DNA of 64,000 nt from an uncultured Desulfobulbaceae bacterium (lineage in GTDB: Bacteria > Desulfobacterota > Desulfobulbia > Desulfobulbales > Desulfocapsaceae), in assembly GCA_947311315.1 (NCBI GenBank), contig CAMZKN010000065.1:2648-66647 (forward strand). The letters run 5' to 3'. The position numbers and the translations under genes are program-made. This document shows, piece after piece, positions 344 through 57,247 of this stretch; positions within the stretch are counted from its first letter, which is position 1, and every line of letters starts with the position of its first letter. The notes beneath the pieces are model-generated. The model made no database searches. It had not been told where the DNA came from and was given only the letters and a program-made list of their open reading frames with translations.

Positions 344-562
344 TGTATATATATGAAAAGAAGGGCTGGAAGCCCATCGTTGTGATGAATTTTCAAGGTA
401 GCCGTAATGCATTCTCAGACAAACTCCTAGTTTACCTGATATCAGCCTGGTTGTCTATTGCTTGTTCCTGTTGATTTTTTTGTCTGTAGCCTGTATATAA
501 AACGGTCTGTTGCTGCAATTTTTTTATATAAAAGACCCTGTCCAGGGAATATTGAGTGATTT

Positions 563-51658: not shown

Positions 51659-52057
51659 ATGAATTATGGGATTGTCAGTCAAGAACAACTCGAGAAAATA
51701 GATGAGATTTTGTCGGATAAGTTAATAAAACTCGGAGTTGATTGCGTCATTATTATTGACATGGCTGGAAATATTATTACTGCCAAAGATAATGGTGAAA
51801 GTAAATACGATGTCTATTCTTTTGCTGCACTGGCTGCCGGAAATTTTGCAACGGTTGATGCTATGGCGAAACTGGTTGGTGAGCAGGAGTTTTCGCTGTT
51901 GTTCCACAAAGGGCAGGAATCAAACATCCATTTTAGTAAAATTGATGACGAACTACTGTTGATTTCAATGTTCGGTAGAGATATTTCTTTGGGTTTTCTA
52001 AGACTTAATGTCGTGGATGTTATAGAAAAAATTAGAAATGTCTGGGGTAGTAAGTAG
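51659..52057 (+). CDS. mglB: Roadblock/LC7 protein, MglB-like GAP
   Basis: IIIDMAGNII, SFAALAAGNFA, LVGEQEFSLLFHKG; directly upstream of mglA. Confidence 0.88.
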   Translation: MNYGIVSQEQLEKIDEILSDKLIKLGVDCVIIIDMAGNIITAKDNGESKYDVYSFAALAAGNFATVDAMAKLVGEQEFSLLFHKGQESNIHFSKIDDELLLISMFGRDISLGFLRLNVVDVIEKIRNVWGSK

Positions 52058-52147
52058 GAGCAGTGGATATCTTTTGCTTTGAAAGTTCAGAGTGAGGAAT
52101 TTATGGTAGAGCTGTTTCAGTAAAGAATACCTATTTGGAGTGGAACG

Positions 52148-52753
52148 TTGAGTTTTATCAACTTAAAAGACAAGGTAGTTCAGGTTAAAATAGTATATTA
52201 TGGGCCTGGGCGATGTGGGAAGACCACAAATCTCGAGTATATCAATCGGACATACAGAAAACAGATTGTTTCGGAGATGGTTAGTCTTAAAACCCATGGA
52301 GATCGAACACTGTTTTTTGATTTTTTGCCTTTCGATATGGGTCAAATTAAAGGTTATGATATTAAGATCCAACTCTATACCGTACCCGGTCAAGTAAAAT
52401 ATAATGCTACGAGAAAACTCGTATTAAGAGGTGTTGACGGGATTGTTTTTGTTGCCGATGCCATGGAAAAGCAAAGGGAAAAAAATATAAGATCATTAAA
52501 TCAGCTTCATGAAAATCTTCAATCGTATAAAGAATCTATTTTCAAGATACCTTTAGTGATGCAGTACAATAAAGTTGATTTGAAGGAACACGGTATTCCT
52601 ATTCTTCCGATTTCGGTTCTGCAAAAAGATTTGAACAGCCGTCTGAAAGTTCCATATTACGAAGCAAGTGCAATTACTGGATATAATGTTGCGGCAACAT
52701 TGAAGAAAATTATTTCTTCGTCGGTGATTTCAATTCAGAAAAAATTACTCTAG
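52148..52753 (+). CDS. mglA: MglA-like small Ras-superfamily GTPase
   Basis: KIVYYGPGRCGKTTNL, RTLFFDFLP, YTVPGQV.YNATRKLVLRGVDG, NKVD. Confidence 0.95.
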   Translation: MSFINLKDKVVQVKIVYYGPGRCGKTTNLEYINRTYRKQIVSEMVSLKTHGDRTLFFDFLPFDMGQIKGYDIKIQLYTVPGQVKYNATRKLVLRGVDGIVFVADAMEKQREKNIRSLNQLHENLQSYKESIFKIPLVMQYNKVDLKEHGIPILPISVLQKDLNSRLKVPYYEASAITGYNVAATLKKIISSSVISIQKKLL

Positions 52754-52761
52754 AGAGATCT

Positions 52762-55746
52762 GTGGTGAAACAGTCTACTGAAAACCAATATGATGATGAT
52801 TTAACAGTCGGAACTGATAGTTATGACGATTCTTACTATACGGATGAAGTTGATCTCTTTGAGTTCTCAACCAGTGATGAATCTCCTATCAGCAGGCTGA
52901 AGAGCCTCATACTATCAATTGACTGGGAAATCACCGATGAGGTGCTTCAACAGTTTAATGAAGAGTTAATTGATTTAAAAGTAATATGGGCAGGAGAAAA
53001 AATTAATCTTGTCTATGTACAGGCTCTTGAAAAAATAAGCAAATATATCTACCAGTTTAAGGCAGATTCACATCCCAATTCCATCAAGTTGTTGCTTACT
53101 TTGTACTATAATCTGGAAAAGATTGTTTCTTCTGATGATTTGGCTGAGTCCGACAAGAAAAAATTATTACTGGCTGATGTTAAGAAATTTGAAAAGCTGA
53201 AACGTCATATATCATTACAAAAAGAGGAAGTCGTTTCTCAGGCGGCAGTGAAACCTGATTTAAAAATTGAAAAACCTGTCGACAGTAACGAGAAGTTGCT
53301 CAACTTGAAGGCAATAGTTTTAGGAATTGACTGGGAAATTACTGATCAAGATTTGAATGATTTGCGCCAGGAGGTTATAAATCTTGAGGAAAAATTTTCT
53401 GATAGTCGGCCAAAGCTTATCTTTTTGCAAGGGATTGGAACTCTAGGTGCATATATAAAATTAAAAAAGAGCAATGCTCATGCCGATGCCTTTAAAGTTT
53501 TACACCTCTTTTTTGAGAGCCTGGAGAAAATAGTTACTACGCCAATGAGTCTTGAGGAAGAAAAGGCTATTCTTTTTCCAGCAGTAGAAAAGTTTAACGC
53601 ATTTAAATCGTTGCTTGGATCGACAATTTCACAGGAAGCTGTGAAGCAAGTAGAAATAGAGGAAGAGGCAGAAGTAGTATCTGAACCTCCTGTTACTGCA
53701 TCGGCAGCAATTGCGCCTGCATTTGCTGGTATATCTGAAGATGAAACTCATGGGTTTCAGGCAGATGAAGAAGCGGAAGCGCTTGGTTCTGAAAATGTTG
53801 GTAATGTATCTTCTCATATTAATGACTTTTTTGGAGAATCTTCTGACTCCACTGTGGAGAGCCAGACTGAGGGTGCGGAAGAAAGTGTAGAGAAATCTGA
53901 AGAAGTTGAAGACGCCAATTTTGTCTCAAAACTTGAAGAGAGCTTCAGTGACAATATCGAATCGGTTGGAGCGGTAGATAAACAAACCGCACTGCAGGGA
54001 GTTGATGTTGAAACTGATGATGATATTGAAGATGATCTCGAGCAGAAGGATCGTTTATCTACAGGTGTTGCTGCCATATTTGATGAGCAGCCTACTGACG
54101 AGCAGGAACCTGCTTTGATGGATGTTGCAGGGGAAGAGGTCGAAAACCTAGAGGTGGTTTCGAACCAATTAGAAGAGCAGGAAGTTGCACATGAAGGCGT
54201 GGAGTCAGAATCAGTTCTGCAGGGGGTTGATGTAGAGTCTGATGCTGATGATGAATCAGGAGAACTTGCTTTACCAACTATTGATGGAGAGGTCGCTCCG
54301 GCACTTGTTGACAATGAGGAAGAGAGCATTTTCAGTGCTGATGAATTGGAAAACATCCCCCTGGAACCGTCAATTGAGGATGAAATATTTGGTAAACTTG
54401 ATGGTTTTTTTGGGGGAGATGAAGCGTCCCCATCTGACATTTCTCCTTCAGCAGACGGTCTTTCTGAAATTCCAGAGCCATCGACATCAAATGAACCCGC
54501 ACCTTTATTAACTGAAACAGAAGTGGAGAGTGATGAGGCTCTCGAGGAAGATTTTGATCTTGAAGAGTCTTTTAGTGCATTGTTTGATGATACTGACACT
54601 GAGGAGAGTATAGAAAGCGGTTCCGAGGTTGAGGCACTTTTTGATAGTTTTGATGATGATGAAGAAGATAAAAAGAGTGAGATTCCTGAGGAAGTAGAGG
54701 CTGAAGAAATTGATGCCCATGGAGATGATTTCTTTTCTCTCGAGGAAAGTGTTGAAACACCGGAAGATGATGCGTTGCTTTTTTCTTTACAAGAGGTTGC
54801 TGGTGTTGAATCTGTTGAATCTGAAGCAAAGTCAGAAAGAGAAAGTGACTTGGATAATATTGATTCATCTACTGTTGACGAAGAGGTTGAACTTGAGTTT
54901 GTTGAACAAGACGAGTTCGAGGATTTTGATGAAGAAATTTTACTTTTAGATGAATCTCCTGATCCAGATTTTGTCGAAGAAGTTGAGGACGAAGATGTCG
55001 TTTTTGAACTGGTTGATGAAGTTGAAGCTGAATCCCTACCAGACGTAGATGGATCACCGGAAGAAGTTATTGAAAGTGCTGAGCAGGGACAAATCATCGC
55101 GGAAACTGAGCATCATGAAGAACTGTCTGCTACCCTGAAAACTGACTCCTTGCAGGTATGTATTCAGTCGCTTGAACTCGATCTTAATGACGAAATACTT
55201 GTGGCCTTGTTAAAAGAGATTGATGGTTTACGTCAAAATTGTGAGGAGCAGCCTCAAAAGAAATTGCTTCTTCAGCTTCTTGCAATAGTTGCTCAACATA
55301 TTGATCAATATCGGTATGAAGCGAGTGCTGAAGCGTATGGGCTGCTGCAGTCTGTAAACAATGCCTTTCTTGGATTGAATGAAGAAAATGTGCAGGAAAA
55401 TGAGGCCGTTGTTGCAGATGAAACAATGAAGATATTGCAATGGCAACAAGAGATGCTTGCCAGGCAAGCTGTTCGACAGGGCGAAAATTTACTGTTCGCT
55501 GATCCTCTTCGAACTGACACAGGCCTGATGAGTGACGAAGACTTTGATATTTCACAATCCTCTGGCGAACAAGTATCATCTTGTGATGATTTAGAGGATG
55601 TTGAGAGTAGCAGAGAAGATATCGAAGAAGAGATGGAGGCAGTTGATTTTACTGATGGCATCAGAAGCGAAATATCTAATTTAAGGCAGACACTGCAAAA
55701 AGAAATTGCTGAATTGAGAAAAGAGATAAGAGATGATCTGACTTAG
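52762..55746 (+). CDS. Large acidic protein with repeated helical (SIDWEIT) domains, long D/E-rich linker and C-terminal coiled coil
   Basis: 994-aa ORF, GTG start 8 bp after mglA. Two clear repeats (LKSLILSIDWEITD / LKAIVLGIDWEITD) and a third diverged copy near the C-terminus. Confidence 0.85.
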   Translation: MVKQSTENQYDDDLTVGTDSYDDSYYTDEVDLFEFSTSDESPISRLKSLILSIDWEITDEVLQQFNEELIDLKVIWAGEKINLVYVQALEKISKYIYQFKADSHPNSIKLLLTLYYNLEKIVSSDDLAESDKKKLLLADVKKFEKLKRHISLQKEEVVSQAAVKPDLKIEKPVDSNEKLLNLKAIVLGIDWEITDQDLNDLRQEVINLEEKFSDSRPKLIFLQGIGTLGAYIKLKKSNAHADAFKVLHLFFESLEKIVTTPMSLEEEKAILFPAVEKFNAFKSLLGSTISQEAVKQVEIEEEAEVVSEPPVTASAAIAPAFAGISEDETHGFQADEEAEALGSENVGNVSSHINDFFGESSDSTVESQTEGAEESVEKSEEVEDANFVSKLEESFSDNIESVGAVDKQTALQGVDVETDDDIEDDLEQKDRLSTGVAAIFDEQPTDEQEPALMDVAGEEVENLEVVSNQLEEQEVAHEGVESESVLQGVDVESDADDESGELALPTIDGEVAPALVDNEEESIFSADELENIPLEPSIEDEIFGKLDGFFGGDEASPSDISPSADGLSEIPEPSTSNEPAPLLTETEVESDEALEEDFDLEESFSALFDDTDTEESIESGSEVEALFDSFDDDEEDKKSEIPEEVEAEEIDAHGDDFFSLEESVETPEDDALLFSLQEVAGVESVESEAKSERESDLDNIDSSTVDEEVELEFVEQDEFEDFDEEILLLDESPDPDFVEEVEDEDVVFELVDEVEAESLPDVDGSPEEVIESAEQGQIIAETEHHEELSATLKTDSLQVCIQSLELDLNDEILVALLKEIDGLRQNCEEQPQKKLLLQLLAIVAQHIDQYRYEASAEAYGLLQSVNNAFLGLNEENVQENEAVVADETMKILQWQQEMLARQAVRQGENLLFADPLRTDTGLMSDEDFDISQSSGEQVSSCDDLEDVESSREDIEEEMEAVDFTDGIRSEISNLRQTLQKEIAELRKEIRDDLT

Positions 55747-55823: not shown

Positions 55824-56809
55824 CTAACGATTCCAGGCAATGAGAGTTAAAATAGAATAGAGAAAAAGCAATCCTCCACCTAAAAAGAGCCAGCGCCGTG
55901 AATGTTTGTATCCGGGTTGTGAAAAGAAGAGAGTAATAATGAAAAGAAGTGGTGTAATTACACCTGCAATGAATGGGTGGATGTAACGAAGTAGCTCCTG
56001 GAGCCCAAGAAAAAACCATGGGCCGGATATATAAGAGGTTCCAGCATGGTCTGGTTCGAGTGGTGCGGGAATAAACATTGAGAAGAGTAGAACACCTGCT
56101 AAGACCAACTGGTAGTCATTTAACTTTACACGATAAAGGCGAATGTGACTGAGGGCCGTAATGAGTAGAAGAAGATCGAGTCCGATTACATGGTGGAGGT
56201 ATATTTTTCTGAGTCCGGTACTTGATATTGAAAAAAAGAGTTCATTGAGAAAAGAGCCGGCAAAGGGGATTGTCTGGATAATATTTTCGGCTATCATTCC
56301 GGCAGCAGCACCGGTACTATCGCCTCGAAGAACATATCCTGTAAAGAGGAGCAGTACAATTATCGGCAGGTTTGTTGTTAATTGGATCCATGTGAAAATA
56401 TCATATCGCTCCGACTTGCTGTATACAGCAATCATGTGAATACAGCAAAGTAGAAAAAAGAACTGGCTCGAAAAAAAATGGAGTGATCTGAAGTATTCAC
56501 CGTAAGGTACCAGAATGTCAATGGATGTTGTCGAATAAAAGGGGGTGGCATAATCGTACTGCAGGCCGATTATAACTCCGGAAACAAGAGAAATATAGAG
56601 ACAAATGAGCGCACAGGCTCCCCATTTATAGTCTTTCCATGAGAATAGTTGGGCTAGGAGCTTGTCCGAGAATGCCAATTTGTCCAAACTCTTCGTTATT
56701 ATCATAAAAATATGCTCGTAATATCAACTATATGACTGTGCGTATTTTTCTGAAAAACCTCGATTTTAACCAAAATGTCTATTCTCGGACAAGCTCCTAG
56801 AGTCTTCAT
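55824..56809 (-). CDS. Compact cytochrome b (b6 + subunit IV-like) with a MITE inserted after codon 4
   Basis: RSLH, IHM, LFTGYVL, LHH heme ligands, GPWFFLGLQELL (PEWY-equivalent). Native start inferred at 56809 (MKTL); the current ORF starts at 56705 inside the MITE. Confidence 0.85.
56658..56796. mobile_element. 139-bp MITE (non-autonomous IS derivative) with 16-bp perfect TIRs and CTAG target duplication
   Basis: CTAG|GAGCTTGTCCGAGAAT ... ATTCTCGGACAAGCTC|CTAG. Removing it restores an in-frame MKTLAQLFSWKDY. Confidence 0.9.
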
Positions 56810-56833
56810 ATAATTATACGGCCTGGCATGTTA

Positions 56834-57247
56834 TTAAATGGTGACTGTGTAAAATGGGTCGTGGTCACGTTTTTCAACCTCGTAAAAAGGTAGAGGTTTG
56901 TTGGCTGGACCGTGTATTACCTTTCCACTTTCGGCCAGGAACTGGCTCTGGTGACAGGGACATTCGAGTATATCTTTGTCTTCATGGTACGTAAGTTTGC
57001 AGCCCAAGTGGGTGCATTTGCGGGATAATGCCCAACACTTCTGGTTTCGATCAAACAAAATAAAGTCGGGAGTCGTGATAAAGCCTGTGGCGGGTGCCGC
57101 TTTACTGATAGTTATAATTCGTGGTTGCCTGGGGACGTTGAAACCGATAAACCGGTAGAGTGGATATAGAAATGTTAACGTGCCAAGAAGGAGACAATAT
57201 GTTCTTCGAGTTATGCCTTCTTTTTTTTTGTGCGAAATTGCAACCAT
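56834..57247 (-). CDS. Rieske [2Fe-2S] protein
   Basis: ITRR twin-arginine-like motif + TM; CTHLGC and CPCHQSQF boxes. ATG 57247 lies 1 nt after the coaD stop. Confidence 0.92.
   Translation of the reverse strand: MVAISHKKKEGITRRTYCLLLGTLTFLYPLYRFIGFNVPRQPRIITISKAAPATGFITTPDFILFDRNQKCWALSRKCTHLGCKLTYHEDKDILECPCHQSQFLAESGKVIHGPANKPLPFYEVEKRDHDPFYTVTI

Follow-up and report, generated by a model that had tools for sequence, protein, structure and literature searches.

A miniature transposable element inserted near the start of a cytochrome b gene in an uncultured Desulfobulbales bacterium, and how the interrupted gene may still be translated

How does a gene for a core respiratory protein fare when a mobile element lands four codons after its start and breaks its reading frame? 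This question is raised by a 64,000-nucleotide stretch of contig CAMZKN010000065.1 (henceforth the window), from an uncultured Desulfobulbales sulfur bacterium of hydrothermal-vent and epibiont communities, in which a 139-bp element at 56658-56796 lies within the 5' end of a minus-strand cytochrome b gene, with a Rieske gene upstream of it. Comparison with alleles that lack the element identifies it as a miniature inverted-repeat transposable element (MITE) that inserted into a CTAG across codons 4-5 of cytochrome b in a Rieske-cytochrome b operon. The parts of the locus are, in the direction of transcription:

56834-57247, minus strand: Rieske [2Fe-2S] gene of the same operon, directly upstream of cytochrome b (PF00355; motifs CTHLGC and CPCH)
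56797-56800: CTAG, upstream copy of the target duplication, made up of native codon 4 (CTA) and a G; a single CTAG is found in L165 and L166, two loci without the element
56781-56796, minus strand: left terminal inverted repeat, GAGCTTGTCCGAGAAT in the orientation of the gene
56658-56796, minus strand: MITE of 139 bp, a near-palindrome that encodes nothing itself; about 30 copies in other Desulfobulbales genomes match it from end to end at 72-86% identity
56658-56673, minus strand: right terminal inverted repeat, ATTCTCGGACAAGCTC on the gene strand, which now codes for residues FSDKL of a longer N-terminus
56654-56657: CTAG, downstream copy of the target duplication, which gives the Leu codon that rejoins the native frame
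55824-56705, minus strand: present cytochrome b open reading frame (ORF), 293 residues from an ATG inside the MITE (56705-56703), the first 16 residues (MIITKSLDKLAFSDKL) being encoded by the MITE

The insertion and its empty site

Read along the minus strand, the stop codon of the Rieske gene is followed by 24 nucleotides, ATG (56809) AAG ACT CTAG, GAGCTTGTCCGAGAAT, 107 nucleotides, ATTCTCGGACAAGCTC and finally CTAG CC CAA CTA TTC TCA TGG. The 16-nucleotide ends are perfect, with GAGCTTGTCCGAGAAT on the plus strand at 56658-56673 and its reverse complement at 56781-56796, and the element as a whole shows 71% self-complementarity. A repeat finder returned one inverted repeat, 56654-56673 against 56781-56800, which is 20 nucleotides long including the CTAG and has 100% complementarity. 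Removal in silico of the element along with one CTAG yields MKTLAQLFSWKDY. An earlier note on this DNA had described the layout as CTAG, 139 bp and CTAG, and both the inverted-repeat analysis of the window and the excised sequence confirm this description. The tetranucleotide CTAG, which is the preferred target of the element family, is 7.6-fold rarer than base composition predicts in the window (31 observed against 235 expected, at a GC content of 42.8%); given this strong avoidance, two CTAGs around a perfect inverted repeat are not a chance occurrence. Together, the rarity of CTAG, the presence of the same ends around more than 60 similar-sized elements elsewhere and the empty site in relatives place the arrangement beyond chance. 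The GC content of the window also makes it unlikely that the organism is 'Ca. Desulfobulbus rimicarensis' DR15, for which the value is 47.3% (PMC7117923).

The empty site is seen in the closest relatives of the gene. At 90% identity the window protein forms a cluster with five others, three of which are 280 residues long and start with MKTLAQLFSWKDYKWG (P0123), MKTLPQLFSWKEYKWG (P0121) and MKNLPQLFSWKEYKWG (P0125). P0123 is encoded on both L165 (JGI metagenome) and L166 (ENA assembly), and the gene order around it is that of the window, with a coaD-like gene, Rieske, cytochrome b and then a convergent gene for a protein of 997 residues; the Rieske-cytochrome b order recurs in L167. At the junction L165 and L166 read ...GCCGTATAATATGAAGACT-CTAG-CCCAACT..., with a single CTAG and no element, and alignment of the target site (...ATGAAGACT-CTAG-CCCAAC) sets this one CTAG against the two that lie 139 bp apart in the window. 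These alleles bear out the proposal in the earlier note of a MITE with a target duplication. They also agree with its prediction that the native protein begins with MKTLAQ, which is exact to the residue for P0123 and is joined by similar starts in P0121 and P0125. The element is in none of 43 more distant orthologue loci (42-65% identity), and no element-free orthologue, either in the cluster or among these 43 loci, begins with MIITKSLDK, the start that would have refuted the reading in the earlier note.

Selection on the interrupted gene

The same insertion is carried by L164, a locus from a second assembly in ENA, which encodes P0122 (MAFSDKLLAQLFSW...). One could ask whether an assembler misplaced a repeat into the gene, since the element is highly repeated in the metagenomes concerned and contigs often break at it, L164 itself starting inside the element. 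In the epibiont and vent metagenomes X1, X8 and X11, contig depth at the element ends is 100-1000x that of flanking unique sequence, which indicates that the family is extremely abundant in such communities and breaks many contigs. However, independent contigs of X1, X2, X5 and L164 join the element to unique cytochrome b sequence, and those of X5 also join it to the Rieske side. Specifically, a Logan contig of 415 nucleotides from the epibiont-metagenome run X1 matches 56366-56780 with 0 differences, and contigs of the hydrothermal-vent run X5 lie over both junctions. The raw-run contigs with the insertion come from two studies, and related alleles without the element are found in X6 and X11. 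With a perfect target duplication that agrees with the empty site, we consider a misassembly hardly credible.

Across 834 coding positions the window and L164 alleles differ at 30, with 22 synonymous and 8 non-synonymous differences that are spread over positions 45-814; derived states occur in both lineages, and stops and indels are absent. The Nei-Gojobori estimates for this pair are a dS of 0.120, a dN of 0.013 and an omega of 0.106, and, under neutrality, as few non-synonymous changes as these have a binomial probability of 1.6e-8. Omega against the MITE-less alleles is 0.09, which matches the value for the occupied pair. If the two occupied alleles descend from one shared insertion event, all of their divergence arose after the insertion. 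This shared descent is the simple reading of the identical site and near-identical element; it is nevertheless an assumption, and to that extent weighs against our interpretation. On this basis, the insertion took place before at least two strains diverged (dS 0.12), and strong purifying selection since then indicates that a working protein is still made, as the earlier note had supposed in calling the insertion tolerated and the gene apparently rescued.

These data bear directly on the opposite possibility, namely that the insertion inactivated cytochrome b and left a pseudogene in which the frame from 56705 merely happens to be open. The insert totals 143 bp (139 plus the second CTAG), which is no multiple of 3 and so breaks the frame of the native start. 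Moreover, the window allele has an unusual change, W15C, where helix A begins (56614 region, native codon 15), within a KWGAW motif that is otherwise conserved; the change is derived, allele-specific and non-synonymous, and the position is Trp in L164 and in all aligned relatives except P0002, which has Phe. Yet an omega of 0.106 over 30 substitutions on both lineages, the retention of all haem ligands and the persistence of the insertion in at least three data sets are at odds with decay, and we regard a pseudogene, already largely refuted by the dN/dS result, as very improbable.

Examination of the encoded protein shows the features of the family. It is recognized by Pfam PF00033 (Cytochrome_B; 55.6 bits, cutoff 27.2) and PF13631 (37.7 bits, cutoff 27), and PDB cytochrome b6 and b chains match it at E = 6e-8 in an alignment that runs from residue 26 on. 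The haem-ligand histidines H76, H90, H172 and H187 are invariant in the alignment, as are other core residues, and their spacing of 14 in helix B and 15 in helix D is one that we take to be b6-like. In the neighboring Rieske gene, the ORF could be extended to TTG 57271, and relatives use ATG 57247. The replacement of the native MKT by MIITKSLDKLAFSDKL would amount to a net gain of 13 residues, such that 26 residues would precede the KWG motif in the window protein. Since the annotated tails of orthologues vary from 13 to about 27 residues, an extension of this size would be harmless. The topology of b6 and b proteins is established, and by homology with their structures the N-terminal tail would be on the cytoplasmic side, ahead of helix A.

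Possible routes to translation of the interrupted gene

The earlier note had pointed to an in-frame ATG inside the element, and ATG 56705 indeed opens the 293-residue ORF, which reads MIITKSLDKLAFSDKL-LAQLFSW and re-enters the native frame at Leu4. It overlooked that the native ATG 56809 is intact after the insertion and now heads an upstream ORF, with an ATGA overlap at its end. The features that matter for initiation are:

56702-56809, minus strand: upstream ORF created by the insertion, 35 codons (MKTLGACPRIDILVKIEVFQKNTHSHIVDITSIFL), from ATG 56809-56807 to TGA 56704-56702
56698-56727, minus strand: sigma-70-like consensus match TTGATA-18-GATAAT pointing towards the gene, 10 of 12 positions
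56685-56687, minus strand: in-frame TTG within the MITE, read from the sequence
56676-56678, minus strand: alternative in-frame TTG start; ATG in L164, where the gene caller chose it (P0122, MAFSDKL...)

The upstream ORF consists of four native codons (MKTL) and 31 codons of the element, and its TGA (56704-56702) overlaps ATG 56705-56703 to form an ATGA at 56705-56702. As RNA, the element is predicted to fold at -56.1 kcal/mol (z = -5.9) with a perfect basal stem of 20 bp, and ATG 56705 is situated in the weakly paired interior of this hairpin, 30 nucleotides from the perfect stem. Translational coupling in bacterial operons most commonly takes the form of four-nucleotide ATGA overlaps, which support termination and re-initiation. 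We propose that the insertion is tolerated and that the most likely route to cytochrome b is, probably, coupling through the upstream ORF and its ATGA. In this scheme the operon mRNA would still come from the upstream promoter, and ribosomes would start at the native ATG 56809 and translate the 35-codon chimera, thereby melting the 20-bp basal stem, whose 5' arm lies within the upstream ORF. On reaching the UGA, which shares bases with the AUG inside the MITE (AUGA, 56705-56702), they would terminate and then re-initiate there, and the product would be a cytochrome b with MKT swapped for MIITKSLDKLAFSDKL on its cytoplasmic tail.

Several observations weigh against this scheme. Neither the native ATG nor ATG 56705 has a good Shine-Dalgarno sequence; a survey of the window, in which 32 of 51 genes had such a sequence and the background level was about 48%, is too crude to discriminate. 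Two in-frame TTGs follow downstream, one of which is an ATG in L164 and is preferred by the gene caller. Furthermore, most copies of the family would likewise leave the upstream frame open to roughly this point, which makes the upstream ORF a by-product of the sequence and not evidence of design. In favor of the scheme, by contrast, are the 84 nucleotides of MITE common to the window and L164, in which 1 difference is seen; the synonymous rate would predict about 9, or about 6 with constraint confined to the newly coding part. This is suggestive, and no more, of a constraint now acting on the new 5' region, the low divergence resting on 84 nucleotides at one contig end and having a P of about 0.001 to 0.02 by the null that is chosen.

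Alternatively, ribosomes might enter the operon mRNA at ATG 56705 itself, or at a TTG, in which case the upstream ORF would be no help and the native ATG irrelevant. The weak pairing around ATG 56705 would favor this, as would the lack of a strong Shine-Dalgarno sequence at the native start too, on which the gene may never have depended; but the 20-bp perfect stem in a fold of -56 kcal/mol would hamper 30S access unless melted, and the exact ATGA overlap makes coupling the simpler route, so that we think direct loading unlikely. A further alternative goes back to the promoter proposed in the earlier note. The TTGATA-18-GATAAT sequence is present and directed into the gene, as stated there, but it does not rise above background, with 10 promoter-like matches in 2.2 kb against 5.4 +/- 2.6 in shuffled sequences, and its -10 hexamer GATAAT (56703-56698) overlaps the proposed ATG (56705-56703). 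A transcript from this hexamer would start downstream of ATG 56705, and hence the promoter and that ATG are mutually exclusive on one mRNA. The MITE would then be a portable promoter, with transcription from about 56690, translation from TTG 56687 or 56678, and cytochrome b uncoupled from Rieske. The match of the hexamers at 10 of 12 positions and the conservation of the -35-like TTGATAT across the 139-bp family are consistent with this, and the codon at 56678, TTG here and ATG in L164, is the sole difference in the 84 nucleotides of shared MITE. A short transcript without the 5' arm would also escape the hairpin, and MITE-borne sigma-70 promoters are documented for Correia elements and others (PMC10969869). 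Against it, promoter-like matches are not enriched in this AT-rich region, the -10 lies in a variable, covarying stem segment of the family, other copies have no tendency to point towards the starts of downstream genes (about 12 against 11), and TTG starts on leaders of 4-13 nucleotides are weak. We consider a portable promoter doubtful, though a more serious contender than direct loading, and retain coupling through the upstream ORF as the favored account.

On the opposite strand there is another sigma-70-like match, CGGACA-17-TATAAT (10 of 12) at 56786-56814 (+), which comprises the left end and flank of the element and runs antisense into the Rieske gene; its TATAAT is native sequence just upstream of the native ATG.

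The origin of the start codon can be considered from the other copies of the element. ATG 56705 belongs to the most variable, covarying part of the stem, and its A is the single mismatch in an otherwise continuous helix, the opposite arm predicting CTG. Among about 35 copies, L171 is the only one besides the window to have an ATG at the equivalent place. An origin of the ATG by a C-to-A change after the insertion was considered and dropped, as L171 also has it; the variant is rare and may predate the insertion. A scan of JGI metagenomes gave 0 matches for the ATG-bearing variant and 5 for the element/cytochrome b junction, none of them at the cytochrome b locus. One might go further and view the element as domesticated, with its 3' half (hairpin, upstream ORF, ATGA and redundant in-frame starts) being a selected initiation module that sets the cytochrome b:Rieske ratio. 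The basis for this would be the 1 change in 84 MITE bases against 12% synonymous divergence, the fact that this change toggles a TTG/ATG in-frame start, and the position of the ATG at the one mismatch of a covarying stem; we offer it tentatively, as a possibility that is probably not the correct one.

Several aspects of this locus have parallels in known systems. Partly translated intragenic copies (Rickettsia palindromic elements, ERIC and BOX), MITE-borne promoters and co-transcribed hairpins have all been described for MITEs (PMC10969869, PMC2229807). Like the window element, Rickettsia palindromic elements are small palindromic elements that are found in genes and partly translated while the host protein remains functional (PMC10969869, PMC2229807), but their insertions keep the frame and are translated as an internal peptide, whereas the 143-bp insertion breaks the frame; here the gene survives because the element sits at codon 4 and supplies a new in-frame start. 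Correia elements of Neisseria, at about 100-160 bp, share the inverted ends and the RNA hairpin, are often co-transcribed and may have outward sigma-70 promoters (PMC10969869). Their promoter activity and RNase III/IHF effects are experimentally shown, in contrast to the window promoter, which is a consensus match overlapping a candidate start. In ATGA-coupled operons, as here, an upstream stop overlaps the next start, and re-initiation and local unfolding are possible; however, the upstream frame in the window is an accidental chimera and no gene, and its coupling is a prediction. What differs in detail at this locus is the combination of a broken frame with rescue by position and by an element-borne start overlapping the stop of the truncated native frame. 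The type of event is already known and opens no new biological principle; the value of the locus is as a natural case with occupied and empty alleles and a test of selection after insertion. It shows that a frame-breaking mobile insertion in a core respiratory gene can be survived, documents the remodelling of gene starts and operon coupling by MITEs in uncultured bacteria, and warns that an annotated 5' extension can be mobile DNA.

The MITE family and the question of its parent transposon

Similarity searches with the element and with its end place it in a large family. The end 16-mer occurs in at least 120 loci of the species-representative genome collection. About 280 chance matches to the 16-mer are expected in 596 Gb, and matches without CTAG flanks inside unrelated genes are such noise. 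Within the window the 16-mer marks the single full element and otherwise only a solo end with 2 mismatches at 411-426:

409-430, plus strand: remnant of a second element, in the form of a solo end (ATTCTCAGACAAACTC) with CTAG after it, adjoining the start of a minus-strand gene

No partner end for this remnant was found within the first 430 bases. The family has more than 100 copies, and the 64 end pairs among the matches listed fall into two size modes. The mode of 138-142 bp has at least 23 copies in Desulfobulbales (Desulfocapsa, Desulforhopalus, Desulfopila and others), and that of 156-163 bp at least 27 copies in marine Gammaproteobacteria (Thiotrichaceae, Granulosicoccaceae, Alcanivoracaceae and lucinid symbionts) and one Polaribacter. 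CTAG is present on both sides in 39 of the 64 paired copies. The gammaproteobacterial elements of about 159 bp have only an end of about 19 nucleotides and the CTAG flanks in common with the window copy, their interior being unrelated. Examples are:

L015, 7686-7844: element of about 159 bp
L049, 703-861: element of about 159 bp
L062, 720-878: element of about 159 bp

To judge from these sequences, the same ends serve several MITE subfamilies across phyla. The copy in the Polaribacter metagenome-assembled genome is 161 bp long.

About 28 of 30 copies examined are intergenic, which makes the window copy exceptional in being inside a gene, and no orientation bias of copies towards neighboring gene starts was detected (about 12 against 11). 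The hairpin is maintained across the family: in an alignment of 24 copies (A2), 16 of 45 predicted pairs show compensatory double changes, as in columns 47/95 (UA 7, CG 5, GC 4) and 63/79 (GC 9, CG 9, UA 3). This suggests that a stem-loop is under selection, be it as DNA or as RNA, or else that its arms are copied symmetrically. A search of Rfam with the element gave just sub-threshold chance matches to plant miRNA and snoRNA, and a literature search for the end sequence returned unrelated primer matches only. This large MITE family is apparently undescribed. A further possibility is that the whole family represents an orphan, structure-constrained class of mobile element, with identical ends in several phyla, 16 compensatory stem pairs and no transposase partner found. 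The family is very abundant and targets CTAG. It is shared between Desulfobulbales of vents and sediments and Gammaproteobacteria that oxidise sulfur, symbionts among them, and could mark horizontal exchange in these communities.

The earlier note had linked the element to the IS5 family and related elements; firm support for an IS5 ancestry did not emerge. Comparison of the E. coli InsH transposase with all ORFs of the at least 120 loci by phmmer gave no match, and the ends of E. coli IS5A (GGAAGGTGCGAA...) gave no meaningful alignment with the element end. Nor was a parent insertion sequence (IS) recovered: no autonomous IS with these ends lies next to any exact end among the at least 120 loci listed, and none was found by exact or approximate end pairs 600-2600 bp apart, by ORFs beside unpaired ends, by clustering of 990 ORFs, by inspection of the interior after every end, in plasmids (blastn) or in viral contigs. 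The neighbors of the elements are housekeeping genes, and all CTAG-flanked matches are MITE subfamilies. No IS630-type transposase with these ends turned up either, the neighbors having been judged by eye and no profile search for IS630-type domains made.

A duplication of TA alone fits the locus equally well. IS630, as cited in PMC2170065 from Tenzen & Ohtsubo 1991, prefers TA within 5'-CTAG-3' and duplicates only TA, and a duplication of this IS630/Tc1-mariner kind within CTAG gives the window footprint (C-TA-[G...C]-TA-G). Since CTAG is a palindrome, an IS5-like duplication of 4 bp cannot be distinguished by its footprint from an IS630-like duplication of TA. Among the matches listed, one copy is flanked by CTGG/CTGG, and there are no CTAA/CTAA or TTAG/TTAG pairs. 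In the same set, 97 of 103 copies have a G adjacent to the end, and the outermost base is more variable (TTAG 4, ATAG 2, CTAA 1). These flank statistics appear to favor a TA duplication slightly, but are not decisive. A close described analog is MITEPsy1 of Pseudomonas syringae, which derives from ISPsy2, is 100 nucleotides long and has 18-nucleotide terminal inverted repeats with a CTAG (or YTAA) target on both sides (PMC3189936). This IS5-type MITE is likewise short and non-autonomous, with inverted ends and CTAG on either side (PMC3189936); however, its end (GGAAGGTCTGAAAAAGCC) is unrelated and its parent IS is known, whereas the window family is one of marine Desulfobulbales and Gammaproteobacteria, has yielded no parent and has a copy inside a gene.

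In one locus, L071, two inverted CTAG-flanked ends at 131-2196 enclose about 2 kb with genes for a cobalamin-binding-domain protein and a uroporphyrinogen-decarboxylase-like (MtaA-like) methyltransferase; the ends may belong to two unrelated copies, or the whole may form a composite mobile unit.

Convergent with cytochrome b in the window, and conserved in L165 and L167, is a set of three genes at 51659-55746 (+), which code for a protein of 132 residues, a small Ras/Arf-like GTPase of 201 residues and an extremely acidic (D/E-rich) protein of 994 residues with no Pfam match. This set resembles an MglB/MglA-type pair with a giant acidic partner.

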